31,036 nucleotides of DNA from a virus (taxonomy: Duplodnaviria; Caudoviricetes), in the IMG/VR virus record IMGVR_UViG_3300020043_004265, positions 1-31,036 of that record, one strand, 5' to 3'. Position numbers and translations under genes: made by a program. The notes below the pieces were generated by a model. The model was not told where the DNA came from. It made no database searches and was given only the letters and a program-made list of their open reading frames with translations. Each line of letters begins with the position of its first letter. The stretch's first letter is position 1. Positions 8,985 to 29,252 of this stretch are shown in pieces.

Positions 8985-9015
8985 TTTGTGTAATAAAATA
9001 TTATTACTACCTTTG
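8985..9015 (+). promoter_or_regulatory. Bacteroidetes-type promoter with an operator in the spacer
   Basis: TTTG (8985-8988), 19 nt, TACCTTTG (9008-9015); the spacer holds GTAATAAAATATTATTAC (8990-9007). Confidence 0.8.
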
Positions 9016-9044: not shown

Positions 9045-9053
9045 AACTACCAA
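9045..9053 (+). promoter_or_regulatory. AACTACC leader motif, copy 1
   Basis: AAAAACTACC-AAAA-ATG(9056). Confidence 0.75.
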
Positions 9054-9055
9054 AA

Positions 9056-9349
9056 ATGAGAGATTTAGCAGCAATTTACAGAAAACATTTTTTCGTTGAA
9101 ACAGTACAGGCTAACGATAACCTTTTAATCATTGGCCATACCTTCTTACCAGGTGCAGATTCAAACAAAGTTTATGTTCACAGATGCAAAATAAACCCCG
9201 AAAAGTTTGATATTTATTTTGGCGTTATCGGAATGAATTATAATTTTGTATGCAGACACGAGATATTGCAAGTAAGCTACGATGAGATAAGTTCATCAAT
9301 TATCAAATACGTTCCAAATCTACTAATTTATGCCCATTCCAAATCCTAA
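9056..9349 (+). CDS. Hypothetical protein, first gene of the plus-strand module
   Basis: 97 aa, preceded by a promoter and the leader motif. Confidence 0.75.
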   Translation: MRDLAAIYRKHFFVETVQANDNLLIIGHTFLPGADSNKVYVHRCKINPEKFDIYFGVIGMNYNFVCRHEILQVSYDEISSSIIKYVPNLLIYAHSKS

Positions 9350-9791
9350 TCCCGGAGAGCAGTTCGACAAGTTCATCGAACGCTGTATGTCAGATGAGAA
9401 TATGGTCTCTGAATATCCACAAGACCAACGATATGCCATCTGCTCAATGAAGTTTAACAATAAAGACAAGGCAACCAATCCGAAGAACGAAGAAACATTC
9501 ACCGACTATCCAAAGGCAGCCACCGAGAATGCAAAACGTGCGCTTAAATGGAAAGAAGAGAATGGAAACAAGAATGACTGCGGAACTCTTGTCGGATGGA
9601 TGAGAGCAAATCAGTTAGCGAAGAAAGAACCTATCAGCCTCACAACCGTAAAACGTATGGCAGCATTCATAAGACATCAAGAGAACAAAGATGTTAGCTA
9701 TGACCAAGGATGCGGAGGCTTGATGTGGGATGCCTGGGGCGGTGATGAAGGTATCAACTGGGCAATTAGAAAAATCGAATCACTTAAATAA
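9330..9791 (+). CDS. Conserved phage protein of unknown function
   Basis: MPIP.P...E....FI.RCM module plus a NAKRAL.W...CGT.VGW.RANQLA...KRM..F.RH...WGG..G..WA module. Confidence 0.8.
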   Translation: MPIPNPNPGEQFDKFIERCMSDENMVSEYPQDQRYAICSMKFNNKDKATNPKNEETFTDYPKAATENAKRALKWKEENGNKNDCGTLVGWMRANQLAKKEPISLTTVKRMAAFIRHQENKDVSYDQGCGGLMWDAWGGDEGINWAIRKIESLK

Positions 9792-9804
9792 TTAACAATT
9801 TTAA

Positions 9805-9813
9805 AACTACCAA
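9805..9813 (+). promoter_or_regulatory. AACTACC leader motif, copy 2
   Basis: AAAACTACC-AATT-ATG(9816). Confidence 0.75.
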
Positions 9814-9815
9814 TT

Positions 9816-10178
9816 ATGTCAAAGGTAACAGTTCAAAAGTATTATGATGCATTATTATACCTACAAAAAATAGGTAAAATTGAAAACAGTACAAAATTTG
9901 CAAAAGATAAAAAAATAAGTGTAAGATTTATTTTAACTTGTGTAGAATTAGGTTTAGTAGAAAAAATAAATAGATTTTATTATTGTAAGTTTAAAGAACC
10001 GAAAATTGAAATGGCTCAAGATATTATAAAAGTTATTAATGAAAAAAATAATATTTATTATTCTAAAACACCTATACAGCCACAATTACAACTTCCAACA
10101 GATGCACAAATGATTCAACATTTAAAATCATTAGGCTATAAAATTTTAAAACCAGTAACAGAATTTCAAGAACTTTAA
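9816..10178 (+). CDS. Hypothetical, possibly DNA-binding protein; visibly AT-rich gene
   Basis: 120-aa basic ORF bracketed by AAAACTACCAA copies. Confidence 0.75.
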   Translation: MSKVTVQKYYDALLYLQKIGKIENSTKFAKDKKISVRFILTCVELGLVEKINRFYYCKFKEPKIEMAQDIIKVINEKNNIYYSKTPIQPQLQLPTDAQMIQHLKSLGYKILKPVTEFQEL

Positions 10179-10180
10179 AA

Positions 10181-10189
10181 AACTACCAA
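10181..10189 (+). promoter_or_regulatory. AACTACC leader motif, copy 3
   Basis: AAAAAACTACC-AACA-ATG(10192). Confidence 0.75.
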
Positions 10190-10191
10190 CA

Positions 10192-10506
10192 ATGAGAACT
10201 TTATTTTTTATCCTTATGCTGTCATTCAGCGCAGCAGCTCAACAAACTGATTCAGTTTACTGCATTCAAATCCTTTCTACTCGCACACCTGAGTATATCA
10301 GAGCTGAACACTTAGCTATGTGTACACTTGATCAGGCAATGGTCGAACAAAAAGATAGCCTATATCGCATTATGTTTGTTTACGATACATTTGAAGAAGC
10401 TGAAATAATGCTTACCACGTGGAAGCGAGCGCACAAAGATGCGTTTATCTGTCGCAGAACCCGAAAACAAGTTTCTCAATACTTTCCTTTTGTTACTAAG
10501 CTATGA
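10192..10506 (+). CDS. Secreted SPOR-domain-like protein
   Basis: Signal peptide ending AAA-Q; YCIQI...YRI....TFEEAE..L..WK...KDAFI pattern resembles SPOR. Confidence 0.6.
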   Translation: MRTLFFILMLSFSAAAQQTDSVYCIQILSTRTPEYIRAEHLAMCTLDQAMVEQKDSLYRIMFVYDTFEEAEIMLTTWKRAHKDAFICRRTRKQVSQYFPFVTKL

Positions 10507-10670
10507 AAGATATCATAATAGTAATAGTTTTGGCTATCTTGGTATGGCAATTATTACGCTGCGAGTTTCAGCAGGAATACAAGGCACCTGAGCAACCTTT
10601 CAATGGCTCAGATACTTTAAAAATCTTTTTTGTTAACGACTCCATCACGGAAATAAAACCTTTGAAATGA
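10503..10670 (+). CDS. Small membrane protein or lipoprotein (55 aa; absent from the ORF track)
   Basis: MKDIIIVIVLAILVWQLLRC...; ATGA overlaps with both neighbours. Confidence 0.7.
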   Translation: MKDIIIVIVLAILVWQLLRCEFQQEYKAPEQPFNGSDTLKIFFVNDSITEIKPLK

Positions 10671-10885
10671 CAGCAGTAGAATGGTTAATAGAAAATATTT
10701 TAAAACACGATAAATCATTTATTGAGTTTTATAATGCTGAAATTCAACAAGCCAAAGAAATGGAAAAGCAGCAGATAATAGATGCTGTAGAATGGGGTAA
10801 TCGAAAAGGATATGATGAACATAGACTTACTTGTATATTAGATGAAGATGAAGATTACTACAATGAAACCTACAAAAAACATTAA
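10667..10885 (+). CDS. Small TAVEWL-family phage protein
   Basis: MTAVEWL...QAKEMEKQQIIDA...EDYYNETY. Confidence 0.85.
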   Translation: MTAVEWLIENILKHDKSFIEFYNAEIQQAKEMEKQQIIDAVEWGNRKGYDEHRLTCILDEDEDYYNETYKKH

Positions 10886-10890
10886 CGATA

Positions 10891-10965
10891 CTTGGTTTTG
10901 GTAGTTCCAGAAGGGCAGGCCGCTGAACAAAAACTTACCTGACAGCTGGAAAGACAGCATTTTTT
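10891..10965 (+). ncRNA. Candidate structured RNA carrying the antisense loop UUUUGGUAGUU
   Basis: Intergenic. (CT)TGG-TTTTGGTAGTT-CCA(G) hairpin, CAGG/CCTG pairing, GCTG-GAAAGA-CAGC hairpin, then T6. Confidence 0.5.
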
Positions 10966-10984
10966 AACTTAAAAAACCTTTGAA

Positions 10985-11140
10985 ATGAACGAAGAAACAG
11001 AAACAGCAGTTGAGTTTTTATTCCGTATGTATATGGATAAAAAACAAAACCTCACCCTTGCAGACTTTATCAATGCCGTTGACATCGAAACTGAACAGCT
11101 CATACAGGCATCACAACAAAACTATCAATCAGAAAACTAA
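10985..11140 (+). CDS. Small TAVE-family paralogue (51 aa; absent from the ORF track)
   Basis: MNEETETAVEFLFRMY...; same leader as the 10667 gene. Confidence 0.7.
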   Translation: MNEETETAVEFLFRMYMDKKQNLTLADFINAVDIETEQLIQASQQNYQSEN

Positions 11141-11147
11141 CTACCAA
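11139..11147 (+). promoter_or_regulatory. AACTACC leader motif, copy 4
   Basis: TAACTACC-A-ATG(11147). Confidence 0.75.
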
Positions 11148-11686
11148 TGAAAGCAATCTTAATCTGTACAGCACTCGCAGCACTACTGCTGTCATTCAAA
11201 CTTGCAACACCAGCAAACCCACCATCGGGCAAACCTGCCAAACAGAAACCTGCTCACGTAGAAAAATACATTAAGAGATTTTTGAAGACTGCACAGCGTG
11301 AAGCAGACCTTTACAACATTCCTGTGTCAATAACTTTGGCACAGGGTATCATCGAAAGTAACTCGGGCCGATCAGACCTAAGCAGAAAACACAACAACCA
11401 CTTCGGAATGAAATGGCATCGCAGCAGGAAAGAAAAATACGCTGTGTTCCGTGATGATACTCCGACCGATAGGTTTGTTGTTTATCGTTCAGCTTGGTGG
11501 TCTTACCGTGACCATTCGAAGCTCTTAGTTTCTGCCCGGTACAGACACCTCACAAAACTAAAACGAACTGACTATAAAAGATGGGCAAGAGGATTGAAGA
11601 AAGCAGGATATGCTACCGCTCCGCACTATGCCACAGCACTAATCAATATTATTGAAACTTATGACCTTGACAAGTACGACAGATGA
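11147..11686 (+). CDS. Secreted GH73 (FlgJ-like) glucosaminidase/muramidase
   Basis: Signal peptide; IPVSITLAQGIIES, NNHFGMK, GYATAPHY motifs. Confidence 0.9.
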   Translation: MKAILICTALAALLLSFKLATPANPPSGKPAKQKPAHVEKYIKRFLKTAQREADLYNIPVSITLAQGIIESNSGRSDLSRKHNNHFGMKWHRSRKEKYAVFRDDTPTDRFVVYRSAWWSYRDHSKLLVSARYRHLTKLKRTDYKRWARGLKKAGYATAPHYATALINIIETYDLDKYDR

Positions 11687-12450
11687 GACCAATACAGATT
11701 GAAAAATCATTCACACAGCACAACCTGCAAAGTTTTCTAACTGAAGCACAAAAATATAAACAGCTCACCCCTGAGCAGGAGATTACAGCAACACCCGAAC
11801 AACTTGTCAAACACAATATGCTTTTTGTTGTAAGTGTCGCAAAGCAATACGGCAGCAAAGCAAGTGACCTGAAAGACTTAATCCAGGAAGGAATGATTGG
11901 ACTGATAAAGGCATCACAAAGATACGATCCATCAAGAGGCTTCAAGTTTATCTCTTATGCTGTATGGTATATTCAGCAAAGCATAATGGCATACCTTAGA
12001 AATCAGCGTAACCTTATCAGGGTATCGGAACCACAGATAATATCAAATCGGAAGATAATGGAACTGATTGACACGCATACGGAAGAGGAAATCAAAGACA
12101 AGCTGAAGATTACCGATAACGTATTCAGAAACTTTATTCATAGTCCATTTACAGAATCAATGGATGATCAATACGATGCAGATTCCGATGATTACACAAA
12201 GCAATATGTTTCTGATGATAACTTTTTGGACTACTATGAGAATAAAGATATGGCTGACCGTATCAAAACATTGATGGAAAAATTGTCATTCAAGGAGCAG
12301 CATATCATTTACCAAGTTTATCTTATGCCATTCCCGAAAACTAATCAGGAACTGGCAATGGAAATGAAGATGTCACAGCAAGGAGTGAGATACCTTCACG
12401 ATCGGGCACTCAAAAAACTTAAACTAAAAACCTCCGTTCACGGCCTGTAA
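11683..12450 (+). CDS. Sigma-70 family RNA polymerase sigma factor (RpoD/RpoS-like)
   Basis: Region 1.2 LTPEQE; region 2 NMLFVVSVAKQY and DLIQEGMIGLIKA..YDPSRGFKFISYAVW; region 4 HTH ending RALKKLK. Confidence 0.92.
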   Translation: MRPIQIEKSFTQHNLQSFLTEAQKYKQLTPEQEITATPEQLVKHNMLFVVSVAKQYGSKASDLKDLIQEGMIGLIKASQRYDPSRGFKFISYAVWYIQQSIMAYLRNQRNLIRVSEPQIISNRKIMELIDTHTEEEIKDKLKITDNVFRNFIHSPFTESMDDQYDADSDDYTKQYVSDDNFLDYYENKDMADRIKTLMEKLSFKEQHIIYQVYLMPFPKTNQELAMEMKMSQQGVRYLHDRALKKLKLKTSVHGL

Positions 12451-12691
12451 GTTCAACCAGGATGCGTTCAGAGATATTGTATTTCGCAGACAGTTCTTTT
12501 ATTGTCTGCGTTTTTGTTTTGTTTCCTATGCTGTCATAAAACTCGCAGATGGCACAATACTGCAAAACTCTGCGCTCTGTAACGATGCCCGATTCAATGA
12601 GCATATCAGATAGCGTTTCAGGAGTGATGATTTCCATCTGCTCAATGCGCTCTGACAACCTTCGTGCAAACTCGCTTTTAATATTCTCCAT
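12419..12691 (-). CDS. Hypothetical protein with a C-terminal HTH-like segment
   Basis: IKELSAKYNISERIL; start reassigned to MENIKSE (12691), which overlaps the upstream stop. Confidence 0.6.
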   Translation of the reverse strand: MENIKSEFARRLSERIEQMEIITPETLSDMLIESGIVTERRVLQYCAICEFYDSIGNKTKTQTIKELSAKYNISERILVELTGRERRFLV

Positions 12692-12938
12692 ACATTCCAT
12701 TTTCTTCATAGGTTTTAATTGCTTCCATAACCTTGCGGAATACTTTACCTCTGCACGATGAACAGTTGTCCTCCATAATGACATTGGATGTGAAGAGATA
12801 TTCGTTGTAAATCTCAAACAGATACCTTGTGCGGTCATCACCTTGAGGCAATCCTCTTGGTAGTTCCAACATCCAATCCTTTAACTGGACAAGTTCTTCC
12901 CTATGCTCTTCGGGAATGTTGTAAGCTTTGTTTCTCAT
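12678..12938 (-). CDS. Hypothetical protein with a CxxC motif
   Basis: 86 aa, NCSSCRGKV; ATGA-coupled to the upstream gene. Confidence 0.75.
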   Translation of the reverse strand: MRNKAYNIPEEHREELVQLKDWMLELPRGLPQGDDRTRYLFEIYNEYLFTSNVIMEDNCSSCRGKVFRKVMEAIKTYEENGMYGEY

Positions 12939-13372
12939 ATTGCTAATAAGATTAGTGCTGCCAAAAATCCTGTACCTGCACCGATGCCAATCAGCTTCCA
13001 GGTCTTTTTTCTTCGGGTTTCTTTTACAAGCTTTTTCTGTACCTCTTTGTGTACAATGGCATCCCGATTGTAGCTTTCAATTATCTGTTTGTAACCTGAT
13101 ATTTCAAGTTCCATTGTCTGCAATCTTCTATCCTGCATCATATTCAGTCTTTGATATTTGTTCAAAGTAGAATAGCAGCTGTCCAAGATGGTTTCAGTTT
13201 CTTTTAGCACTACCTTATAATGTTTTAGGCTGTCAAAACGTGAAGCTGTCAACTCCATAAACGTGCGAGTGACAATAAATCCATCAGGATGTGGCTTAAT
13301 TTGCGAGAACCCTGGCAACCAAAGCAGAATCGCTAAGGCTGTGATAAGATATTGGTGGTGCAGGTGGTACAT
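12935..13372 (-). CDS. Putative spanin-like lysis protein (signal peptide, coiled coil, C-terminal TM)
   Basis: Hydrophobic N-terminus ending GFSQ, coiled coil, C-terminal LIGIGAGTGFLAALILLAI; overlaps the partner gene by 77 nt. Confidence 0.55.
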   Translation of the reverse strand: MYHLHHQYLITALAILLWLPGFSQIKPHPDGFIVTRTFMELTASRFDSLKHYKVVLKETETILDSCYSTLNKYQRLNMMQDRRLQTMELEISGYKQIIESYNRDAIVHKEVQKKLVKETRRKKTWKLIGIGAGTGFLAALILLAI

Positions 13373-13640
13373 TGATATTTATTTTGATGTTTTTAATCTG
13401 CTTCTTTACATCCTCGGTCTGAATGGACAAAATTTGTCCAAAGGTATCAATCTCTTCGGTCAGCTTCTCACGATCTTTCTGCAAAGATACAATACTTTGC
13501 AATACCGAATCTCTAAAATTGCGTTCATTTTTCAGCAATTGCTTGTGAAAATTGGTAGTGCTGTCATAAAACAAGTAGGACAGCACCCCAATCAAACCTA
13601 TTAAAACTAAAATCAGCAGTAAAATTATGTTGTTTTTCAT
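13296..13640 (-). CDS. Putative i-spanin-like membrane protein
   Basis: N-terminal TM helix, coiled coil, Pro-rich tail. Confidence 0.55.
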   Translation of the reverse strand: MKNNIILLLILVLIGLIGVLSYLFYDSTTNFHKQLLKNERNFRDSVLQSIVSLQKDREKLTEEIDTFGQILSIQTEDVKKQIKNIKININVPPAPPISYHSLSDSALVARVLAN

Positions 13641-16600
13641 CGTAGCGTTACTTTTTTTCTGATGCGCTCACCTTCTCTTGTATCTCTGTGCAGCTCATCC
13701 GTTACCAAATATACTTTGCTATCCAATACCTGACCACTTATCGCAGTAGTACGGTCATTAAACGCTCTTAGTGTGCTGTTACCTATGCCACCGACATTTG
13801 GCGCACCGAGCAAACCACCATCTGCGAAGCCTGGTATCCTCGCAGCACTCAGCACAGGTCTTAGCATCTTTGTCTGTTTGGCATTCAGGAATGTTTCACC
13901 TACCCGGGCAGCAACCAATACATTGTCACCTTTGCTTGTCTGTGGTATGTTCTGCACACCAACAACTTTGCCACCACTATCAGGAAGTGCAACAGGAGTA
14001 ACTGCACCACCATCCGCTAATGGCTGTGCTGCAATGATAGCTGTTTGAGCAGCACCTGCAACGCCTGCCAATAAAGCAGCAACTGGCCCACCTTTGATGA
14101 ATGCTGTCGATACTGCCAATGCTGTATTGATGATGGACTGAATTATTGCCAATGCCTTTGACCTCTTTGCGGCTTGTAGCTGTATTCTTTCCTGCTCTGC
14201 TGCAAGTTTCTTCTCGTTCTCAATCTCATTATCCAACTGCTGCTGAAGGAACTGCCTGCGCAATCCTGTGGCGTTTTCAAGTTCTTCATTCAGTTTCTCT
14301 TGTCTCTGACTGCTGCGCTCCAACTGTTCCTCAACTTGCTTCTCTGCCCTGGCATTGATAACAGATAAGATTTGATCAATAAACTGAAGACCTTGCTGAA
14401 CATAACTGGCAATCTCTTCAAGCTGCTTAATCCTTTCATCTTTGATATCATCACCAGTCTTTTTGACCTTATCCCTGTATGCCAACTCAGCAGCAGAAAG
14501 TTTTGTGTTCAGTTCCTGCCTTGCCTTATCAACTGCATCGAACTCCTCTTGCTTAATGGCAACACCTTTGTCAGCCTGCTCTTTCAAAAATGCTTCCTGA
14601 TCGTCAACCGCTCGCTGCTGATTTTTAATTTTTTCAATCTCAGCAAGTATCTTTTTCTCTTCTGCAATACGTATCAATGCCTCACGTTTTTTGGCATTAG
14701 TTTCATTTATCAAAAGTTTATTCAGCGTCTCTTCGTTTTCAAGTTCACGCATATCGTTAAACTCTTCAATGAAGCTGATTTCATCAAACATCTGCCTATC
14801 TCGCAGTTCTTTCATTTTTTGCAGATTGTCTTCTGCCTTCTGCATTTCTTCTTTGCGATAGGTATCGTTTATCTCCGCTTTCTTATTGGCTGTGTTCTTC
14901 TCAATCTGCTCTTCAATCTGTGCCTGTAATTTTTTAACTTCCTCAAGTTGTTTGGCATTGTCTTGTTGAGCTTTTAATAGTTCGGCAGAACCTTTACCAA
15001 ATGCTTTTAAAAGTTCATCCTCACGATTTTTAGCAGCTAAGACTGCATCATCATATTGCTTTTTGAGTGCTGCTTTTTCCTGCTCTGCACTTTGCTCTAA
15101 TTCTGCAAGCTCACGTTCACGACTGTCTTTAATGTTCTTGACAATCTCTTCTTGTAGCCTTGTCTGCAATTCTAAAAGCAATGCAGATTTTTCTTGTGCA
15201 TTCTTTATTTCATCCTGCGCATATTTCTCACGTGCTTGTTTCTGTTTTTCAGCTGCTTGATTTGCTGCTTCTTGCTGCTTTTTTAATAGCTCAACATCTA
15301 CCTTTAAACTCTTCTCACCAGTCTTTTTATCTTGTTCGACTCGCTGAGCATCACCTGCTTTCTTTGCATCGTTGTAACCTTTGGAGAATGCTTCTGCAAT
15401 GGTCATACCAGCCTTACCTATTTCAGATTGTTGCTTTCTCAAATCTTCAATGGCACTTTTTACATTGGCACCGAAAACACCTTTAACCTGTTCAGCAAAT
15501 ATCTGTGCCTCTAAGAATAAAGATTGGAATGTATTGACAAAGCTTACACCGACTTGCTGCAATGCAGATACAACCCCCGAAAATACAGCAGGTAAATTAT
15601 TGAATACACCAATGATATTATTTATTGCAGCTCCTATGCTTGAAAATACACCTTGTAAAAAAGGACTTTGCTTAATGATATTTGCGACTGTATCATACCA
15701 ACTTGACAGAGCATTTATCAAAATCGGGAAGACAGTAGCTATGACTGTAAGCGGCCCTAATAAAAATTTGACAGCTACCCCAAGTAGATTAAACTGAACA
15801 TTCCCAAGTTTTAAAAAACCAAATACCTTACTGAATGAATCTGATAAATTACCAAACGCATCTGCCAACGGCTTGAATAAATCTATTATTTCGGCTATGA
15901 CTTGGAAAAATCCTGTTTCAAGCTGCTTACCAAAGTTCTTTACACCGCCTGTTTGCTTCTCAATCCTTTGTGCAATTTCAATCTGTGACAATGCAAGCTC
16001 CTTATTTGTATTGACAGCAGCTTTGTTTTTTTCTGAAAAGTCACTTATCTCATTACTCGCACTTTTGAATGCCTGCGGATATTCCGTAATAGCTTTAAGG
16101 TACTCGTCTGCATTACCACGGCCTTCAACAAGTGTTCCTTCCAATTTACCCAATGCATCCTCAAAGCTTATGCCTAAACTTTTACTGAGTGATTCAGCAG
16201 CTGCCGATATTGTCTTTGCATCTGTGTTGAAAGTTTCAGCCAGCGCAGTTGTAGATGCTGTGAGGCTATTAAGGTCTTCACCATAAGCACCCGAAAACTC
16301 AGCAACCGTGTTTTTCGTTTCGTCAATCTTGGATATAAACTGGTCAAGCTTTTGGATAGCCTGCCCGATCAACTTCGCACCTTGAAATGCAACGAAGCCA
16401 CCAACTAAAGCCTTACCAAATCCATTGATATTTCCTTGTCCATCTTTTAACTGCTCGGAGAATGCCTCAAAGCCTGGTATCGTTCTTGTAAGCGAACGGT
16501 TTATTATTGCAAAAGTCTTAGGGTAGTTACCGACATTGCGTTGAAACTGACCTGTACTTTCGTCAATCTTTTTAAGTTCAGTATCGAGCTGCTGAATCTT

Positions 16601-16945
16601 AGTTTTAAGTTCCTGACCTTTGGCAGCATTTCTTTCGGCAGCAGATAAGTTTTTGTATTGCTTTCTTAGGTCAACAAGCTGCTGATTCAATTGGTAATAA
16701 CTACCCTCAGCTGCTTTTGTTCCCTCGGCAGACTTAATGAAATCTTTCTGCTCTTTCCTTGCCTTTATGATTTGCTCATTCGTTGCAGCAATCTGATTTC
16801 GGAGCTTTATGTATTCATCGCTGCCCTTCTCAGTTTCTTTAAGTTCTGCATTGAGTTTTTCAAGTTGCTGCTCAAGACCTACAACTTGTCTTGTTAAGTC
16901 CGACAAGCCATCAATCTCAATTGATAACGCTATTGTTTTTGCCAT
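13637..16945 (-). CDS. Tape measure protein
   Basis: 1102 aa, helical/coiled-coil; FQRNVGNY motif, central amphipathic stretch, C-terminal ADGG motifs. Confidence 0.9.
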   Translation of the reverse strand: MAKTIALSIEIDGLSDLTRQVVGLEQQLEKLNAELKETEKGSDEYIKLRNQIAATNEQIIKARKEQKDFIKSAEGTKAAEGSYYQLNQQLVDLRKQYKNLSAAERNAAKGQELKTKIQQLDTELKKIDESTGQFQRNVGNYPKTFAIINRSLTRTIPGFEAFSEQLKDGQGNINGFGKALVGGFVAFQGAKLIGQAIQKLDQFISKIDETKNTVAEFSGAYGEDLNSLTASTTALAETFNTDAKTISAAAESLSKSLGISFEDALGKLEGTLVEGRGNADEYLKAITEYPQAFKSASNEISDFSEKNKAAVNTNKELALSQIEIAQRIEKQTGGVKNFGKQLETGFFQVIAEIIDLFKPLADAFGNLSDSFSKVFGFLKLGNVQFNLLGVAVKFLLGPLTVIATVFPILINALSSWYDTVANIIKQSPFLQGVFSSIGAAINNIIGVFNNLPAVFSGVVSALQQVGVSFVNTFQSLFLEAQIFAEQVKGVFGANVKSAIEDLRKQQSEIGKAGMTIAEAFSKGYNDAKKAGDAQRVEQDKKTGEKSLKVDVELLKKQQEAANQAAEKQKQAREKYAQDEIKNAQEKSALLLELQTRLQEEIVKNIKDSRERELAELEQSAEQEKAALKKQYDDAVLAAKNREDELLKAFGKGSAELLKAQQDNAKQLEEVKKLQAQIEEQIEKNTANKKAEINDTYRKEEMQKAEDNLQKMKELRDRQMFDEISFIEEFNDMRELENEETLNKLLINETNAKKREALIRIAEEKKILAEIEKIKNQQRAVDDQEAFLKEQADKGVAIKQEEFDAVDKARQELNTKLSAAELAYRDKVKKTGDDIKDERIKQLEEIASYVQQGLQFIDQILSVINARAEKQVEEQLERSSQRQEKLNEELENATGLRRQFLQQQLDNEIENEKKLAAEQERIQLQAAKRSKALAIIQSIINTALAVSTAFIKGGPVAALLAGVAGAAQTAIIAAQPLADGGAVTPVALPDSGGKVVGVQNIPQTSKGDNVLVAARVGETFLNAKQTKMLRPVLSAARIPGFADGGLLGAPNVGGIGNSTLRAFNDRTTAISGQVLDSKVYLVTDELHRDTREGERIRKKVTLR

Positions 16946-21556: not shown

Positions 21557-22056
21557 TATGCTCTTCTTATGTTTTCAATAATTTTATCAATCTTTGCTTC
21601 AAATACTGCTGCTGACCACTCCTCTGCAAATTTCATAATTTCCTCTTCTGTGGCATCAATAGTCTTCTGAATAAACTGTGTCGGGCCTTTAACTGGCATA
21701 CCGACTTTCTTATGCTTTCGGGCAATCGCAAACGCTATGCCTAAACTCTTTCTGTTATCCGTAACACCTAACTTCAACTGCGCAAATCTCTGCAACCCTT
21801 CAATGTACTTACTCCTTCCACCTCTTCCCGATGGCTCTGTGAATGGAATCCGATCAGCAGGAACACCCTGGTCTAATGCTATGCCATAACTGTTCAACCA
21901 AATCTCAATCTTTCTTCCTCCGATCGTACTCAGTATTCGGCTCTCGATACTTTCGACCAAATCTCCTGTCATTATGTGGTTCGCAATTTTTAATTGCTGC
22001 CTCATCTCTTCTTTGAGTAGTTCCGCAAGATTGTTCAGTAATTCGTTGGCTTCCAT
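21556..22056 (-). CDS. Putative neck / tail-completion protein (HK97 gp10-like)
   Basis: TGDLVESI, YG..LDQG, AFAIARK...G....TQFI. Confidence 0.6.
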   Translation of the reverse strand: MEANELLNNLAELLKEEMRQQLKIANHIMTGDLVESIESRILSTIGGRKIEIWLNSYGIALDQGVPADRIPFTEPSGRGGRSKYIEGLQRFAQLKLGVTDNRKSLGIAFAIARKHKKVGMPVKGPTQFIQKTIDATEEEIMKFAEEWSAAVFEAKIDKIIENIRRA

Positions 22057-22073
22057 GTATCTGTGGGCAAGTT

Positions 22074-22640
22074 CTATGTTTGGGTATTCTCTTCATCAGC
22101 TGTGGCAATATCTTCCAGGTCAACAGGCAAAAAGGATATGTCTAAACTTTGGTCATCGCAGATAGCAGGAACAACCAAATCCAATGTAACTCTAACGCTG
22201 CGAGTATCAGCCGTGAATCGGTATGGGTCAAACTCAATGCGATAGTCACCAACATTGAAAGGCGGATTCGACACCGCAGAATAGTCCAACAAATATTGGA
22301 TTAGCTTCTTTGCAAGTATCTGCAAGGTCTGCTCAAGTTCGATGGTGGTGTCAATCTTGTAGGTCAAAACTCCTTGCTCGTAGGCATAGGTATCTGTAAT
22401 CAGAAACTCAACCTGGTAAGTATCATAAATCGCAGCTGTATTGCTTTCCATTGCCCGACTGTTTAAAATCGGAGGCAACAATAACACATACGGAAATAAA
22501 CGACCTGTATCTGATAACGGATCGTAGTTGTTCCCGATGTTGATGTTCATATCCGATGGGAATCCGTAATGATAGAAACGGTAATCGGCATCGTTCTGAA
22601 CAATCAGATTGAATAAGTTAGATAGTTGTGTTATTGTCAT
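22074..22640 (-). CDS. Putative tail terminator-like protein
   Basis: 188 aa, acidic, FPYVLL motif; context. Confidence 0.5.
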   Translation of the reverse strand: MTITQLSNLFNLIVQNDADYRFYHYGFPSDMNINIGNNYDPLSDTGRLFPYVLLLPPILNSRAMESNTAAIYDTYQVEFLITDTYAYEQGVLTYKIDTTIELEQTLQILAKKLIQYLLDYSAVSNPPFNVGDYRIEFDPYRFTADTRSVRVTLDLVVPAICDDQSLDISFLPVDLEDIATADEENTQT

Positions 22641-23427
22641 TGTTTCATCATATTTGATTCGTACTCATTCTGTGCAGATTTAAGACTTAGAAAGGCGAAT
22701 GCCGTGTACAAGGGTAGCTTTGCAGCTTCTTTTATCTTCAGTATGTCACCACCTGCTAAGGTTACAAATGTCGCAAACCATCCGTAAGGTTCAATTAAAT
22801 CTTTGACACCTGCTTTAAGGCTGCGAGCGTCTGGCTCGTCGTATAGATTTGCAAATCTTTCTGCAATTTCTCGCTTTGTCTCAGCAAAAAAAAACCTACC
22901 TGGAATAAATCATCGGCATTCAACATACTTTCAAATAACTTCGCTCGCTCTTCAACCTTGTAATCATCAAAACCCTCACCCTCCTTTCGGCAGAGAACTG
23001 CTGCTACTTTTGGCAATGCTTTATACTGCCCATTCATCACATCAGCCAACTGCTTCTCATACTCATTCGCCTCTGCAAAGTCCTCGATTGTACTGTTTTG
23101 CATAAATCGCTGCGGAAGATAATATAATTCTCCCGATAATTCAAAGCAATTAAATGTAGTATTTTCAACTGGTGCCAAATAATTTTGATGCACAGCGTAA
23201 ACTCCTGCAATGTCTTCAGCTTTGCACTTCCGTATCAGCTTCTCTTCAGCACCAGTCCAAAAGGCAATATGCTTGGTGTAATAGTTCAACCAAACAACCA
23301 AGTCTTTATTGTCTTCTTCAGGTTCATAATCGTCAATGAACTCCAAATAATCAACGAAGCGACTGATGCTTATCTCGCTCAGTTTTGGCAGTTGGTATTT
23401 GATGCCTTCAATCTTGATGTCAATCAT
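22637..23427 (-). CDS. -1 frameshift product of the chaperone (GT-like, about 263 aa)
   Basis: After the slip at 22886-22896 the -1 frame is open for 83 codons (FAETKREIA...PYGWFATFVTLAGGDILK...MMKQ*). Its TGA overlaps the next gene's ATG, filling the gap exactly. Confidence 0.8.
22795..23427 (-). CDS. Putative tail assembly chaperone, short (G-like) form
   Basis: 210 aa acidic protein containing GGT TTT TTT TTG near its 3' end. Confidence 0.7.
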   Translation of the reverse strand: MIDIKIEGIKYQLPKLSEISISRFVDYLEFIDDYEPEEDNKDLVVWLNYYTKHIAFWTGAEEKLIRKCKAEDIAGVYAVHQNYLAPVENTTFNCFELSGELYYLPQRFMQNSTIEDFAEANEYEKQLADVMNGQYKALPKVAAVLCRKEGEGFDDYKVEERAKLFESMLNADDLFQVGFFLLRQSEKLQKDLQIYTTSQTLAALKQVSKI

Positions 23428-23666
23428 TTCGCTTTTGGTTTGCTGATTTTAATCTGTTTCTTCTCTGCCGGTATGGAATGCTGAAAATATTCCTTGCCTT
23501 GCTTATCCAAGATGGACTGGTCCGTGATGATGCGCTCACATATCCTGCGAGCTGCAACCAAGTTATTGAGCAGCTGCCTTGTCTGCAAACTCCATTTTTC
23601 TGTCTTATCTTCGACCTCACTAATCATCAGGTCAAGATGTGTTTTCATATCCTTAGCGTTAATCAT
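23424..23666 (-). CDS. Hypothetical protein
   Basis: 80 aa, ATGA-coupled on both sides. Confidence 0.75.
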   Translation of the reverse strand: MINAKDMKTHLDLMISEVEDKTEKWSLQTRQLLNNLVAARRICERIITDQSILDKQGKEYFQHSIPAEKKQIKISKPKAK

Positions 23667-25105
23667 AATAATATAAATTTGTTATTCTTTTTTGATATTA
23701 CAGATGTTACTGCATAGCGCATCGCATCCAAACTATGGTCAAATTCTTTTATCGCTTCATCCAATGGATTCCCATCGGCATCCTCTTTGTATCGGTAGTT
23801 CGAAAGCTCAATGGCAACATCCTTGCTTTCCTTGGTGACTACCAACTCAAACTCATTGATAGCTGATATGCCGTAGGATATACTGTCCTTGCCTTTGTCG
23901 GCCTTGTGTACGTTCAGCCTATGCTTGCCTCGAAGATGGTCAATCAAAATCGGGTCAGCAGAATCTGCAATTATCTTGCCTCTGCTCGTCTGTATCGTTC
24001 TGTTTATCTCGTTGCCTAACTCATCGATACCCATCCCTCGCTTGTATATCAGCTGCTTAATGTAAATCTTTCGGGTGAGCATATCCAACTTAATCTCAAC
24101 GAATGCCGCAGGACTGGTGCTGTAACCAAAGTCAAGTCCGTAAATCGGCTCAATGCCAATCTGCCTGTACTCAGCCTCATCAATCGCATTCCATTTCGGA
24201 TACACCAAACCACCTTCGAAAGGTTTCGGGTCTTGCTGATACATAGCTTGGAACAACCTCGGAGAATTGTCTTGAAACTTTTGCAGTTTTTCAAGGCTGT
24301 GTCTTTCGGGCCATAAAGCCTCACCGATGTTTCTCGGATCGTCTTGTCTTTTGTCCGCTGTCATCAGGATACCTGGAAGCGTTAAGACTGTCCACTCGTG
24401 TGCATCCTTCTGCTTTAAGATTCTGCCTGACAAGTCATCTTCGTGCCATCTCGTTTGAGTGATTAGGACTTGTGAGTTATTGTGCAGACGAGTAGAGAAA
24501 ACACCATTGTACCAATCCCAAACTCTTGCCCGGTATGTCATACTGTTAGCCTCAACAACATCTTTTACAGGGTCATCAATGATGCCAATGTCAACTGGTG
24601 TACCAGTAAGCGAACCACCAACACCAACGGACTTATAGAAACCAACATTTTCGACAATCTCAAAGATGTCGGCATTGCGCAGGAAAGAACCTTTGGCAGA
24701 TGTGCGGATATTGGAAGAGTTTAGCCTGGTGTTTGGGAAGACATCGATGTAAACATCATCATCCATAATGCGCTGCACATCACGGTTAAAACTTCGGCTT
24801 AAATCGGCAGAATATGAGCAACCGACAATCTTTAACTTTGGGTTTATGCCAAGCAAGTACGCAGGCAATCTTCTCGATGTCAGCTCAGACTTTCCGTGTT
24901 GAGGCGGCATAAATACCATCAGCTTTCTAATCTTGCCTTCTGCGAACTTTTGAAGGTACTCAATCAGCAGATTGTGATGCCAGGAGAACTGGTAGTCAGG
25001 TTTGGTATGTTTAACGAATCGTTTAAAATCCTTCGCTGCTATCAGTTGTCGGATCCGCTGCAAGTTCAGCAATTCGTTCAAGTTCTCTGAGTTGATCAAG
25101 GCCAA
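23663..25105 (-). CDS. terL: Terminase large subunit
   Basis: Walker A MPPQHGKS, Walker B IGIIDDP, TRWHEDD, nuclease YGLDFG, ADSA and DHSLDAMRYA; TTG start position uncertain. Confidence 0.95.
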   Translation of the reverse strand: MALINSENLNELLNLQRIRQLIAAKDFKRFVKHTKPDYQFSWHHNLLIEYLQKFAEGKIRKLMVFMPPQHGKSELTSRRLPAYLLGINPKLKIVGCSYSADLSRSFNRDVQRIMDDDVYIDVFPNTRLNSSNIRTSAKGSFLRNADIFEIVENVGFYKSVGVGGSLTGTPVDIGIIDDPVKDVVEANSMTYRARVWDWYNGVFSTRLHNNSQVLITQTRWHEDDLSGRILKQKDAHEWTVLTLPGILMTADKRQDDPRNIGEALWPERHSLEKLQKFQDNSPRLFQAMYQQDPKPFEGGLVYPKWNAIDEAEYRQIGIEPIYGLDFGYSTSPAAFVEIKLDMLTRKIYIKQLIYKRGMGIDELGNEINRTIQTSRGKIIADSADPILIDHLRGKHRLNVHKADKGKDSISYGISAINEFELVVTKESKDVAIELSNYRYKEDADGNPLDEAIKEFDHSLDAMRYAVTSVISKKNNKFILL

Positions 25106-25379
25106 GGTTTTCCAGTTTTAATGTTTGTTTTATCTCTATCATTCCACCATCTTCGCCAGTTATCTCGGTGCGGCTTAGTTTTGGTATTAGGTATTCCTGA
25201 AGCTCAAGCCAAATCTTCACTCTGTCTTTGGGTTCCATCATTTCGAGGTCTTCTTCGATATGTTCCCCAAGCTTGTTTGCTATCCTCGCCAGGAAGGTTT
25301 TTGTTTCGGCTGTGGTTTTGTTAAGGCTACCTTTCGGTCTGCCAGTTGCCATTTTGTGTCCTTTTTCAAATAATCCCAT
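25023..25379 (-). CDS. terS: Terminase small subunit
   Basis: F.KG....GRPKGSLNKTT, YLIPKL...EITGEDG; directly upstream of terL. Confidence 0.75.
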   Translation of the reverse strand: MGLFEKGHKMATGRPKGSLNKTTAETKTFLARIANKLGEHIEEDLEMMEPKDRVKIWLELQEYLIPKLSRTEITGEDGGMIEIKQTLKLENLGLDQLRELERIAELAADPTTDSSEGF

Positions 25380-25507
25380 TTATTTCCATTTTTTTAATGG
25401 TCATCTTAGCCTTATTTATCATTCTTTAGTACCTACAATCAATTATCTTTCTTTTTTGGTATCAATATACCACTTGAATAAAAAAAGTGTCTTAAATCGG
25501 CTATTTT

Positions 25508-25573
25508 TAAAATCGGGGAAGGAAACTACCAATAACCTTCCCCTGAGAGACAAACTTAAAACCTGTTTACAAA
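25508..25573 (-). ncRNA. Candidate small antisense RNA or late leader, with hairpin loop UUAUUGGUAGUUU
   Basis: Perfect 8-bp stem GGGGAAGG/CCTTCCCC (25515-25543), followed by GATTTT; TATTTTTG -7 box upstream. Ends are approximate. Confidence 0.6.
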
Positions 25574-25579
25574 GCACTG

Positions 25580-25587
25580 CAAAAATA
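25580..25587 (-). promoter_or_regulatory. Bacteroidetes -7 promoter box
   Basis: TATTTTTG matches TAnnTTTG; no clear -33 box. Confidence 0.5.
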
Positions 25588-25612
25588 TGTTTTTTTTTCG
25601 AAAAAGTGAAGT

Positions 25613-25831
25613 GTTACAAGCGTTACATTTTTGTTACATCAGAACACCCACTAATACTATATTGTAACAATGTAACAGATGTAACAGGTATTATGTATGT
25701 ATATATAATAGTATAATAGTGTTCCTCATAATGAATGTATTTTCTCGTTACAAGCGTTACATTGTTACACGAGTTGATAATCAATAAGTTATCCGTATCA
25801 AAATTGTAACACATTCAAAAAGCTGTTACAA
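25613..25831. repeat. Eleven GTTACA/TGTAAC hexamers, putative replication origin (or packaging site)
   Basis: GTTACA at 25613, 25622, 25633, 25747, 25756, 25764, 25825; TGTAAC at 25663, 25671, 25680, 25805; AT-rich core. Confidence 0.8.
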
Positions 25832-25835
25832 GGGC

Positions 25836-25867
25836 AAAAAAAAGAGTGCCCCGACATAAGGCACTCT
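25836..25867 (-). terminator. Intrinsic terminator of the recombination operon
   Basis: AGAGTGCC-TTATGTCGG-GGCACTCT followed by T7. Confidence 0.85.
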
Positions 25868-25886
25868 AAAACAAACTATTAACACA

Positions 25887-26414
25887 CTAAACTTGGTCGT
25901 TAAAATCGGATTTTTTAAGTAACGAGTTGTAATCCATCGTTGTTTTTCGGCTCACATCACGTCCGAAAATCTTACCAAATTTCTCCGCTGCGTCTTTTAT
26001 TGCGTAACTTTCAGCAGCGGGTGCAGCCTTCTGAACTCCATCCGTTTTAACTGAGTTCCAATCAGTTGCACCACTTCCCTTGTCTGTTTGTATCGGAGCA
26101 GCACCAATACCATCTTGCCATTCTGTTTCTCCAGTAATTGGGTTTGTTACAAATAGTCTAACCGTGACGCAGACGCTGTTTGCGAGGATTTGAACGGATT
26201 TTACCTCAACCGACCATTTTGTAAAAATACGTGTTAAAAGATACTCAATTTTCTCAATTGGCATATAATTATACCCCTTAATCATCGGATGTGTTACAAG
26301 CCAAGCCTTAGGAGGATCTTGATTTAGCAGTACAGTTAAGGCATTTTGTTTAAGTGATTCCTGTGTGTCTGTGATTAGATCCTGGAATGTTGGAAGTTTT
26401 GTGATGTTTGACAT
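25887..26414 (-). CDS. Rad52/Sak-like single-strand annealing protein
   Basis: YMPIEKIEYLLTRIF..W, AAESYAIKDAAEKFG..FGRD; adjacent to an exonuclease. Confidence 0.75.
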   Translation of the reverse strand: MSNITKLPTFQDLITDTQESLKQNALTVLLNQDPPKAWLVTHPMIKGYNYMPIEKIEYLLTRIFTKWSVEVKSVQILANSVCVTVRLFVTNPITGETEWQDGIGAAPIQTDKGSGATDWNSVKTDGVQKAAPAAESYAIKDAAEKFGKIFGRDVSRKTTMDYNSLLKKSDFNDQV

Positions 26415-26416
26415 TG

Positions 26417-26424
26417 TGGTAGTT
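26417..26424 (-). promoter_or_regulatory. AACTACC leader motif, copy 5
   Basis: AAATAACTACC-ACA-ATG(26414). Confidence 0.7.
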
Positions 26425-26440
26425 ATTTAAAGATTAAGAA

Positions 26441-27199
26441 TTATTTTTTTGCCCAGGCAGGTAAACCGATAACGTGAATTGCAGCTTCTTCTGTGTAACC
26501 GTGCCAGTTCTCAGTTTTGAGGCATTTTTTGTAGGTTTCGATATCTGCGAGATATTCTGCTCTGCCGATTGCGATGGACTCTTCATCAAGTTCATAAATT
26601 TCGCAATTGAACGGAGCTTCCTTCTCTACTGCAATGAAGAAGAATCTTTTTGCATTGGTCAAGTCCATATACATTGCGGCCTGTACGTGATAGCGGAAGT
26701 TCCAAACAGACTTTGCAAATTCAGTTGGACTTGCATCGTTGGTGGTCTTGAGGTCAATCAGTACGTTAAACTTGGTATTATAAAAATCGGGTTTACACTT
26801 TGCAGGCATACCACCGAGCTGACCAAATACTGGTATTTCTGCAACACCTTCAGAAAGGAGTGCTGCTGCCTTTGGATGCTTGGCAACTGACTGAGCAATA
26901 AGCAATGCCTGTTCGTGCTGTTCTGATGTTACAATCAGCTCCTTACCTTCTGCCGTTTCAAGGAATGCCTCGTATAACATCTTGCCTTCTTTGGTTCTGC
27001 GGTCACAAGATGGCATAATAGCATAATCATCCTGGTCGAATAGCACAGAATGCACAAGGCTACCGAAGTTCATTGCTGATGTTGGTTCTTTCTTCTCACC
27101 TTGAATATAGGCTTGGAAATGAGCAGGTGATTTGTGGAGTTGATCGAGTGAAGATTTGCTCAGGTACTCGACCATTGAGTGATACTGTTTGTTTGTCAT
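26441..27199 (-). CDS. RecE/ExoVIII-like PD-(D/E)XK exonuclease (DUF3799-like)
   Basis: YH....LSKSSL, FGSLVH, KCKPD, IDLKTT, YHVQAAMY, FIAVEK. Confidence 0.9.
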   Translation of the reverse strand: MTNKQYHSMVEYLSKSSLDQLHKSPAHFQAYIQGEKKEPTSAMNFGSLVHSVLFDQDDYAIMPSCDRRTKEGKMLYEAFLETAEGKELIVTSEQHEQALLIAQSVAKHPKAAALLSEGVAEIPVFGQLGGMPAKCKPDFYNTKFNVLIDLKTTNDASPTEFAKSVWNFRYHVQAAMYMDLTNAKRFFFIAVEKEAPFNCEIYELDEESIAIGRAEYLADIETYKKCLKTENWHGYTEEAAIHVIGLPAWAKK

Positions 27200-27207
27200 T
27201 GGTAGTT
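27199..27207 (-). promoter_or_regulatory. AACTACC leader motif, copy 6
   Basis: AAAAAATAACTACC-A-ATG(27199). Confidence 0.75.
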
Positions 27208-27236
27208 ATTTTTTAAAATTTTAACGAATTGTTACA

Positions 27237-27264
27237 CAAAGATAATAAAATATTATTACATTTG
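27237..27264. promoter_or_regulatory. Divergent -7 boxes sharing an operator
   Basis: TATCTTTG (minus, 27244-27237), TAATAAAATATTATTAC (27243-27259), TACATTTG (plus, 27257-27264). Confidence 0.75.
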
Positions 27265-27303
27265 CACTATCAAACAATATTTTTTCAAAAATCTTAAAAA
27301 AAA

Positions 27304-27516
27304 ATGAAGACTTACCAAAAAATCAAGGAACGAGCAGATCGTGCAGGCATCAGCATCCGTGAGTTGTGCCGCAGAACAGGCATTCACAAACAGACATTGG
27401 ACAAATGGAGCAGAGTTGAACCGCAGACATTGATGTATTTAGAGCGCATAAATGACGAGCTTGGAAAACAAGAGGATGCTAACCTTAAAAAATATCTCGA
27501 TGAGCGTAAATCTTAG
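27304..27516 (+). CDS. Cro/CI-like HTH regulator
   Basis: GISIRELCRRTGIHKQTLDKW; first gene after the operator. Confidence 0.85.
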   Translation: MKTYQKIKERADRAGISIRELCRRTGIHKQTLDKWSRVEPQTLMYLERINDELGKQEDANLKKYLDERKS

Positions 27517-29179
27517 GCCATACCAGGAAGATGGTGTACAAGGCATCCGTAACAGCCTCAAAAAGAATAAAAGAGTGCTGTACGTACTACCAACAGGTGG
27601 AGGAAAAACCGAGACCTTTATTTACATAGCAGAAAGAGCGATGTCAATGGGCAAGACTGTGTTCTTCCTGGTGCATAAAAAGAACCTGGTGCGACAGATA
27701 AGCGAGCGGTGCAAAAAGTATAATCTTCGCCACGGCATTATTGCAGGTGGATATTCTAAGCAGTATTACTTGCCAGCACAGATTTGCAGCGTTCAGACCT
27801 TGAAGAACAGATTGTCTGATGTTCCAGTACCTGATTTGATTATTGTGGATGAGGCACACCATAGTAATGCAGGAACCTGGAAAACTATCTTGGATTATTA
27901 CTCCGAAATCTATACCCTTGGAGTAACAGCCACACCAATCCGAACAGATGGGCAAGGACTTGGAGATATCTTCCAGGATATGGTATTGGGTCCTACACCT
28001 GCGGAACTGGTCAAGATGGGCAACTTGGTGATGCCTGATTATTATACTTTCAAGAATCTTAAAGGATTGGAGAATGTGAAGCTCGATAAGCACGGAGAAT
28101 ACAATAAAAACGAACTTGACAAGTTGATTGAGCAATCGGGATTAGTTGGTGATGCTGTAAAGGAGTACACAAAACTCGCACCGGGTGAACCTGCGATTTA
28201 CAGTTGCATCAGTATTGCGGAATCTAAAAAGTTGGCAGATAAGTTTCGGGATGCAGGATATACAGCCGAAGCAGTTCACGGTGAGCTGAAAGATGAAGAG
28301 ATTGAGCGGATATTTAAAGGACTGGCCGACAAGACCATTAATGTGGTTACATTCTGCGACCTGATAAGCGAAGGAACAGACATTCCTGCTGTGGCTGTTG
28401 TAGGTCTATGCCGACCAACGATGTCGATGGCCTTGTACTTACAGATTGTCGGAAGAGGATTAAGGCCTTGTGAGGGCAAAGAGAAGTGCATCATATTAGA
28501 TCACGTTGGCAACATCGGCAGGCATAAGCACCCATTGATGCCAAGAGACTGGTCACTCGAAGGAATGAAGAAGAAACGCAAAAAGAAGAAACAAGAGGAA
28601 GAGAAGGAAGAGGAATATTATTTTTGTGAAAGCTGCTACTTTGTTTATGAGAAGACAGAGGAGTGCTGCCCGAAATGCGGATTGGTTAACGAGAAGAAAA
28701 AACGTGAGTTAAAAATTGTTCAAGGCATCGCAGTAAAAGACACCACCACCTTGGAAGAGTTGTTGAATAGAAAGGAGCAGCGGAAACAGCAAGGAATGAA
28801 TAAGACATTGGATGAACTGTGGGAATTTAAGAACTTGAAAGGATATAAGGACTTTTGGGTAAAGCACGTTTTTGAAAGTAGAGTATTGAAGGCAGCGGAA
28901 GATGGGAATAAAAAAATAGAAAATACAAAGAATACAAATGAAGAATTATATAAAAAATGGAAAAATACAGTTGACAAAAATTTTAATATAGAAGAAAATA
29001 TGTCATTCCAAATAAATCTTGCAGAATATAATCTTTTAAGAACCATTACAGATAAATACGGAATAACGCCTGCATCACTTTCTGAATCAGATTTAAAGGC
29101 TGCTGTTCACGTTGCCTGGAATACATTTTATAGCCTTAAAAAAGTGAATATGAAAAAAAATTATAAAAAATCTTACTAA
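27500..29179 (+). CDS. Superfamily 2 (DExH) helicase with a C-terminal Zn finger
   Basis: LRPYQ, LPTGGGKT, VDEAHH, TATP, SEGTDIP, QIVGRGLR, CESC...CPKC; ATG 27500 preferred. Confidence 0.92.
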   Translation: MSVNLRPYQEDGVQGIRNSLKKNKRVLYVLPTGGGKTETFIYIAERAMSMGKTVFFLVHKKNLVRQISERCKKYNLRHGIIAGGYSKQYYLPAQICSVQTLKNRLSDVPVPDLIIVDEAHHSNAGTWKTILDYYSEIYTLGVTATPIRTDGQGLGDIFQDMVLGPTPAELVKMGNLVMPDYYTFKNLKGLENVKLDKHGEYNKNELDKLIEQSGLVGDAVKEYTKLAPGEPAIYSCISIAESKKLADKFRDAGYTAEAVHGELKDEEIERIFKGLADKTINVVTFCDLISEGTDIPAVAVVGLCRPTMSMALYLQIVGRGLRPCEGKEKCIILDHVGNIGRHKHPLMPRDWSLEGMKKKRKKKKQEEEKEEEYYFCESCYFVYEKTEECCPKCGLVNEKKKRELKIVQGIAVKDTTTLEELLNRKEQRKQQGMNKTLDELWEFKNLKGYKDFWVKHVFESRVLKAAEDGNKKIENTKNTNEELYKKWKNTVDKNFNIEENMSFQINLAEYNLLRTITDKYGITPASLSESDLKAAVHVAWNTFYSLKKVNMKKNYKKSY

Positions 29180-29188
29180 AAGTACAAC

Positions 29189-29215
29189 GTAATAAAATAT
29201 TATTACTTACCTTTA
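29189..29215 (+). promoter_or_regulatory. Operator copy 3 with a near-consensus -7 box
   Basis: GTAATAAAATATTATTAC (29189-29206), TACCTTTA (29208-29215). Confidence 0.75.
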
Positions 29216-29243
29216 CAACCGTAATCAATTATTCACATATTAA

Positions 29244-29252
29244 AACTACCAA
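29244..29252 (+). promoter_or_regulatory. AACTACC leader motif, copy 7
   Basis: AAAACTACC-AAAGTT-ATG(29257). Confidence 0.75.

Follow-up and report, generated by a model that had tools for sequence, protein, structure and literature searches.

Several described systems resemble the element reported here. In Stx phages, StxS is a short pR'-tR' RNA that base-pairs in trans, targets host rpoS and stx1AB, and binds Hfq (PMC7547250). Lambda 6S is a short pR'-tR' transcript of undetermined role (bioRxiv 2024.10.31.621285). The SAS/ESAS repeats of Cluster K mycobacteriophages are asymmetric and lie a few nucleotides (nt) before the ATG of non-structural genes only; they are partly linked to inverted repeats thought to be protein-binding, often with one copy reversed (PMC3203893). 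The antisense RNA C4 of P1 and P7 pairs through its loops near ribosome-binding sites, and the loop sets specificity between relatives (PMC5320573). GibS of Bacteroides thetaiotaomicron is a trans-encoded small RNA with two targets and a long unstructured 5' seed (PMC7366714). Here we describe, in the virus record IMGVR_UViG_3300020043_004265, a leader tag, AACTACC, placed just before seven early-type genes, and a hairpin upstream of the putative small terminase gene (terS) whose loop is its exact complement. The window (the whole stretch analysed, 31,036 nt) is the entire 31-kb record. Tag and hairpin together are a real and well-conserved feature. They are probably the target sites and the seed of a short late-promoter RNA, similar to pR' transcripts and StxS, that represses translation of the phage's own early operons, a reading derived from sequence comparison.

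The predicted RNA would resemble StxS and lambda 6S in its short length, its putative promoter at the head of the late operon, its possible promoter-proximal terminator, and its proposed base pairing in trans. It differs from both in that its predicted targets are seven early leaders of the phage itself, marked by a dedicated tag, and in that its predicted seed is a hairpin loop; StxS binds Hfq, of which Bacteroides have no obvious counterpart (PMC7366714). No family match to a Q-like antiterminator was found among the 47 open reading frames (ORFs) scanned, many of which have no family, on a contig that lacks part of the phage genome. Like SAS, the tag recurs in a fixed orientation within a few nt of the ATG, on its 5' side, in non-structural genes only, but SAS is 13 bp long with the Shine-Dalgarno (SD) core AGGAG, whereas AACTACC(A) has no SD character. 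The SAS partner, RNA or protein, is left undetermined in PMC3203893, whereas a complementary hairpin loop was identified here. As in C4, the loop of the predicted phage RNA is complementary to the initiation region of phage mRNAs and would set specificity, a likeness that here concerns complementarity; C4, however, is an immunity RNA processed by RNase P, with three stems and two loops (PMC5320573), and here one hairpin faces seven predicted, dispersed targets in four operons. An Rfam search, suggested in an earlier note on this DNA, returned no match in the window at E<=1, just noise at E>1 in 25380-25900, and nothing in three sub-regions; the window has no match to C4 (RF01695) at that threshold, and its single hairpin is not the three-stem fold. 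Nor did Rfam point to homology with StxS or 6S, to which no direct alignment was run. We take the P4 CI RNA to stand beside C4 as a related system. Like GibS, a Bacteroidota small RNA, the predicted RNA would repress by pairing in start-codon regions without obvious Hfq; GibS, by contrast, is host-encoded and without a shared tag (PMC7366714). By sequence, the predicted RNA belongs to none of StxS, 6S, SAS, and C4, and it would be a base-pairing phage small RNA with an unusual self-directed, tagged regulon. Such a system was not described in the literature searched, with subscription papers largely and supplements wholly outside the search, and a 2025 phage review mentions no such regulon in the portion covered (PMC12197685).

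The window contains 15 copies of AACTACC against 2.34 +/- 1.56 expected, and none of 100 shuffles reached 15. Genes were called with a custom script and classed as early or late from strand and position, not expression; on this basis the tag occurs in 7 of 18 early-type leaders and in 0 of 26 late-type (virion-type) leaders (Fisher p 8e-4). The earlier note had proposed a comparison with shuffled leaders, and in 5000 such shuffles the maximum was 2 for AACTACC and 4 for the best of any 7-mer with at least two G/C. It had also described the word as absent before virion genes, as unlike SD sequences, and as lying 4, 4, 4, 1, 3, 1, and 6 nt before the ATGs at 9056, 9816, 10192, 11147, 26414 (minus strand), 27199 (minus strand), and 29257; all of this held, the gaps exactly. 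The same distribution was observed in the relatives G002 (7/21 early versus 0/26 late leaders), G003 (5/22 versus 0/24), and G004 (5/21 versus 0/28). The seven tags are as follows.

9045..9051, plus strand: tag before 9056 (97 aa, no family), the first gene of an early operon; 10-nt loop match
9805..9811, plus strand: tag before 9816 (120 aa, no family); 11-nt loop match
10181..10187, plus strand: tag before 10192 (104 aa, hydrophobic N-terminus, no family); 10-nt loop match; present in G002-G004
11139..11145, plus strand: tag before 11147 (glucosaminidase, PF01832; its stop and the start of the sigma-70-like gene at 11683-12450 overlap); 10-nt loop match; missing in G003 and G004
26418..26424, minus strand: tag before 26414 (Rad52/Sak-like annealing protein, PF04098); 8-nt loop match
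27201..27207, minus strand: tag before 27199 (exonuclease VIII-like, PF12684), operon-first; 10-nt loop match extending to the AUG
29244..29250, plus strand: tag before 29257 (67 aa), operon-first; kept in G003 and G004 though the first gene differs

The tag core is fixed and its distance to the ATG ranges from 0 to 6 nt. Among relatives the tag stays at the operon-first position even where the first gene is replaced, and the most conserved targets are the first genes of early operons and the Exo/Sak recombination pair. No tag precedes the Cro-like gene or the helicase gene. The tagged first genes already have -7 elements about 30-40 nt upstream of the ATG. Six further copies lie within ORFs of the window, so the 7-mer by itself is not unique to the leaders and the hairpin. 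In G001-G004 (4/4), an early gene of 570-575 aa, located past the window end, has AACTACC at +7 of its coding sequence (codons K-L-P) and is a possible eighth target.

The complementary loop is found at the head of the late genes, in the following arrangement.

25580..25587, minus strand: predicted promoter -7 element TATTTTTG, which fits TAHHTTTG, with an A-tract upstream; predicted start at about 25575
25509..25575, minus strand: predicted RNA of about 67 nt with estimated ends, composed of a variable 5' arm, a terminal hairpin, and a short U-tract
25515..25543, minus strand: hairpin with an 8-bp stem and the 13-nt loop UUAUUGGUAGUUU (25535-25523), the predicted seed; one strong model match per clade genome
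25023..25379, minus strand: putative terS, the first late gene, directly before terL and 135 nt downstream of the hairpin; no family match

The Bacteroidota -7 consensus is TAHHTTTG with a spacing of 4-5 nt (PMC6847099), which, counted from TATTTTTG, places the start near 25575 and gives about 67 nt as far as the U-tract. TA and TTTGCA of the -7 element are invariant across 9 aligned units, and the predicted promoter is of the host primary-sigma type, without an operator-like palindrome. A first promoter candidate, TTTG-21-TAAGTTTG at 25558, was not conserved and broke TAHHTTTG, and TATTTTTG at 25587 was adopted. The hairpin 45-mer has a folding z of -2.6, and in 10/10 units folding is better on the terS-sense strand than on its complement. 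Stem pairing survives a paired indel, double changes, and G-U pairs that exist on the terS strand only; on the opposite strand those of the L007-L012 type and of L216 become A-C mismatches. With a hand-set structure 90% of cells pair (0/500 shuffles). The 13-nt loop is nearly invariant and the 5' arm variable; the U-tract is weak in this genome and strong in L007-L012 and L018-L022.

Two observations concern the surroundings of this unit. An element around CGATTTAAGACACTTTT (25470-25505), downstream of the hairpin, has intergenic counterparts in unrelated phages (L115-L132) and is possibly a late promoter or a packaging-related site. In L218 (160-600) a gene of 94 aa lies between hairpin and terS, with the promoter-hairpin unit unaltered.

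The loop is complementary to all seven tagged leaders over 8-11 nt. Among 44 leaders, the seven strongest loop duplexes were those of the seven tagged genes (-10.2 to -14.6 kcal/mol), with opening costs of 1.4 kcal/mol for the loop and 0.2-2.8 kcal/mol for the targets. The 5' arm was considered as a general second seed and rejected, its best matches in the window, G002, and G003 having no early specificity. Another leader repeat, AAAACCTTTGAAATG, stands before 10667 and 10985 (10652-10669 and 10970-10987), flanking an apparent insertion; the 5' arm at 25563-25557 reads AGGTTTT, and in G002 repeat and arm are both one base longer (AAAACCCT, AGGGTTTT), a weak, single-base correspondence.

All 15 close-relative contigs that span both regions have a hairpin matching 2-5 leaders, many of them being near-duplicates; 8 distinct hairpin units were aligned. 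One relative's contig shows 22 substitutions and 8 indels in 294 nt and none within 25514-25543. The RNA model gave one strong match in each of six clade records and weak matches (<24 bits) elsewhere in 42 sources. Tagged leaders occurred in 0 of 56 sister-group loci, which were found via the exonuclease, and a search of 12 sister genomes or loci did not find the hairpin. Likewise, the TerL relatives G007 (73%) and G008 and G009 (58-59%) have no such pre-terS hairpin and no tagged leader. A downstream-motif scan yielded 22 stretches, including 9 unrelated phages without the hairpin, and a stem-pattern scan 17 stretches, 6 of them unrelated, with no loop-leader match. Metagenome and genome scans yielded no new loop variant, and the lone contig from an RNA run has 94 letters in place of the 99-nt unit.

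Loop and leaders have changed together in two lineages. In G001 the loop, UUGUAGUUUAU, has lost one G, and three orthologous leaders now read ACTACA or ACTACT, with the second C lost; its 5' arm gains an exact 8-nt complement (21/1000 shuffles). Duplex energies of the window loop are -14.3/-10.2/-11.9 on its own leaders versus -6.6/-8.7/-8.7 on those of G001, and the G001 loop gives -6.8/-7.2/-7.2 on its own leaders versus -5.4/-5.4/-6.8 on those of the window, so that each loop favours its own leaders. A separate TerL clade, L017-L020 (100/100 support), has the same promoter-hairpin-terS layout in unrelated sequence. There, in L018 (near-identical to L294), the loop GUGUGGUG mirrors CACCACAC directly before the ATG in 2 of 8 leaders (5/5000 shuffles), and a cross-match with the loop and leaders of the window is absent both ways. 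In G006, the 5' end of the predicted RNA matches the recombinase leader by 13 nt (6/500 shuffles).

The earlier note had paired the tag with two antisense hairpins. The pre-terS hairpin stood, by its fold and its conservation, and the one at 10896-10906 did not.

10886..10965, plus strand: second hairpin of the earlier note, an intergenic cassette outside the system

Its folding is no better than that of shuffles (z +0.8). It is missing from the tagged G002-G004 and near-identical in the untagged L144, L155, L165 (two copies), and L166, in the last of which its GGTAGTT is broken; intergenic DNA of Ralstonia and Flavobacterium phages carries matches to its 3' end as well. It was rejected as a part of the system on these grounds and is a mobile cassette rather than a conserved partner, although it could still pair in this genome.

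Other leader words with RNA-like elements were observed outside the clade. On the minus strand of G009 (C1, 31868-31885) and G008 (C1, 15705-15722; L291 and L288), another private word, AAAACCTTATT..ATG, precedes 7 of 55 leaders (shuffles <=4 in 1000), and a structured RNA-like element downstream of a -7 promoter contains its complement, anti-start codon included (fold z -3.2 and -2.8; no match in Rfam). Alternatively, this element could serve as leader to an opposite-strand ORF of 12-13 codons. In the sister group, the loop of a post-ssb terminator (G010, C1, 34077-34100; also L158, L188, and L190) mirrors AACTTCAAA in 2-5 leaders; in G010 the count is 4/60 leaders (10/1000 shuffles), not significant in a genome-wide test. 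Finally, L029, L030, L032, L034, L036, L037, and L039 carry a promoter and a two-domain RNA-like element just 3' of the Sak gene, in which the first-hairpin sequence and a downstream segment are complementary and co-change between contigs, resembling C4 and its target.

The genes for terL, portal, head protease, and tape measure are located on the minus strand of the window. Early-type genes form four operons and include exonuclease VIII-like, Rad52/Sak-like, helicase, HNH, Cro-like helix-turn-helix (HTH), glucosaminidase, and sigma-70-like genes. Two relatives, G002 and G004, are complete (33.8 and 34.6 kb). The best TerL matches among cultured phages share about 50% identity over part of the protein, with no close cultured relative among them. 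Promoter-like elements TAnnTTTG upstream of the early operons match the Bacteroidota consensus (PMC6847099). Further features of these regions are listed below.

8990..9015, plus strand: operator-like palindrome GTAATAA-N4-TTATTAC followed by the -7 element TACCTTTG (family D11)
27237..27264, strand not assigned: operator-like palindrome across divergent -7 elements (exonuclease gene on the minus strand, Cro-like gene on the plus strand)
29189..29215, plus strand: third operator-like palindrome, with the -7-like TACCTTTA
27304..27516, plus strand: Cro-like HTH gene, untagged, the likely source of the protein binding the palindromes
25843..25867, minus strand: terminator-like hairpin 3' of the Sak gene that sets the predicted RNA apart from the early operon

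The Cro-like protein likely binds these palindromes, and their position over three early promoters, together with the absence of a tag from the Cro-like gene, suggests a parallel transcriptional shut-off. A cluster of GTTACA/TGTAAC repeats with an inverted repeat and an AT-rich centre (25610-25830) adjoins the predicted RNA promoter and is likely a replication origin.

In the mechanism that we propose, the Bacteroidota-type promoter element upstream of the terminase genes would produce the RNA of about 67 nt ending in the conserved hairpin, whose loop would pair before the seven early start codons and block translation. Bacteroidota ribosomes rely on A-rich positions instead of SD, and these would be covered by the duplex. 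The stable RNA would build up over time, or through replication starting at the adjacent putative origin, and shut down the tagged genes, with the Cro-like repressor acting in parallel at the palindromes over the same promoters. Structure in the initiation region is known to lower initiation (PMC6847099), and GibS represses by start-region pairing (PMC7366714). Given the weak U-tract in this genome, the hairpin may double as the 5' end of the late mRNA. We infer transcription, RNA ends, pairing, the sign of regulation, and its timing from genomic features. A trans-acting antisense hairpin directed at dispersed early leaders is supported by conservation, by joint absence from the sister group, by G-U pairs specific to one strand, and by the two lineages in which loop and leaders co-change. 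To this extent the regulon of small RNA targets put forward in the earlier note is upheld, though not in its two-hairpin form.

Several results weigh against this mechanism. The RNA is a prediction from genome sequence, the run data being contigs without strand or ends. The -7 element and hairpin are conserved before terS as a pR'-tR' layout demands, but the U-tract is weak and a terminator scan (loop limit 8 nt) did not call the hairpin. Double changes in the stem are few (3/10 pairs, 98/500 shuffles), and a slid control scored 0.221 versus 0.232. A late gene (5926) contains the same 10-nt match as the leaders, at its codons 7-10. Co-variation of leader and loop, which the earlier note proposed to look for, is weak in G001: its loop alone is not significant (2/30 leaders, 300/2000 shuffles), and with a pairing of about -7 kcal/mol it could reflect decay. 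L018 is a single genotype on 4-kb contigs, its loop bounds were picked after the match was seen, and its two leaders may be duplicates of each other. In G006 the loop matches 0 of 55 leaders.

On the one hand, the hairpin might be only a terminator or attenuator of the late operon, the tag a separate signal (a translation enhancer or the site of a RegA-like RNA-binding protein, spread by duplication of a promoter-leader cassette), and the loop match the relic of an inverted copy. We judge this unlikely. Promoter cassettes are duplicated, with 19-nt identity between 8990 and 29189; the same promoter-terminator unit occurs in L017 and G006 with no loop target found, the L017 contig being without the early region; and chance loop matches to 2-3 leaders occur in unrelated loci. 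This reading, however, fits poorly with a 13-nt loop that is near-invariant beside a variable 5' arm, with loop and tags that co-change in G001 and L018, with the absence of the tag where the hairpin is absent, and with a fixed core at 0 to 6 nt from the ATG. On the other hand, pairing could occur as proposed and serve immunity or superinfection exclusion, the RNA being constitutive in a carrier state and silencing early genes of the resident or incoming phage, with the tag as a C4-like specificity barcode. The host primary-sigma-type promoter without a palindrome and the operon-first genes among the targets would suit this role, as would barcodes that differ by lineage like the a' loops of P1/P7 C4 (PMC5320573). 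We nevertheless regard it as quite unlikely, partly because no integrase-like gene was seen in the gene lists of G002 and G004, inspected by eye without a family scan; in addition, a location at the start of the late operon agrees with lytic timing, and the Cro-like and helicase genes are untagged.

There is a slight chance that pairing instead activates translation or stabilises mRNAs, the RNA being an adaptor where the host is blind to SD. Ribosomes of Bacteroidia disregard SD sequences (PMC7797042), and StxS and PreS are able to activate targets, but the leaders here are already open (0.2-2.8 kcal/mol) and the duplex would lie beside or over the AUG, where structure lowers initiation (PMC6847099) and GibS represses (PMC7366714). 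Equally improbable is a protein that binds the tag, with the hairpin as a plus-strand decoy, or a tag that is a DNA promoter element for a phage sigma factor. The window stem is symmetric and folds on either strand (-15.8 versus -14.3), and the phage encodes sigma-70-like and HTH proteins. However, the G-U pairs, the U-tract, and the promoter element are all on the minus strand, which tells against the decoys that the earlier note had offered as its alternative, and the tagged first genes already possess -7 elements of their own upstream.

In the literature covered, the phage small RNAs regulate host genes or no more than one or two phage genes; with an RNA in control of a tagged regulon among its own early genes, a phage would gain a timer for the early/late switch that is made of RNA only. 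The prediction is precise, with one 13-nt loop, seven targets, and natural variants for swaps. More tentatively, Bacteroidota phages may repeatedly build a protein-free, re-programmable barcode-and-guide clock, in which a leader word and a small RNA with the mirror loop are rewritten together between lineages. The barcode words would then be AACTACC here, ACTACW in G001, CACCACAC in L018, and possibly ACCTTATT in G008 and G009. Such a clock, if real, would amount to a general switch from early to late expression run by RNA only in SD-blind hosts, and start-associated repeats that lack an explanation, such as mycobacteriophage SAS, might likewise have an RNA partner. The system would also give access to translation control in Bacteroidota, which do without SD pairing.

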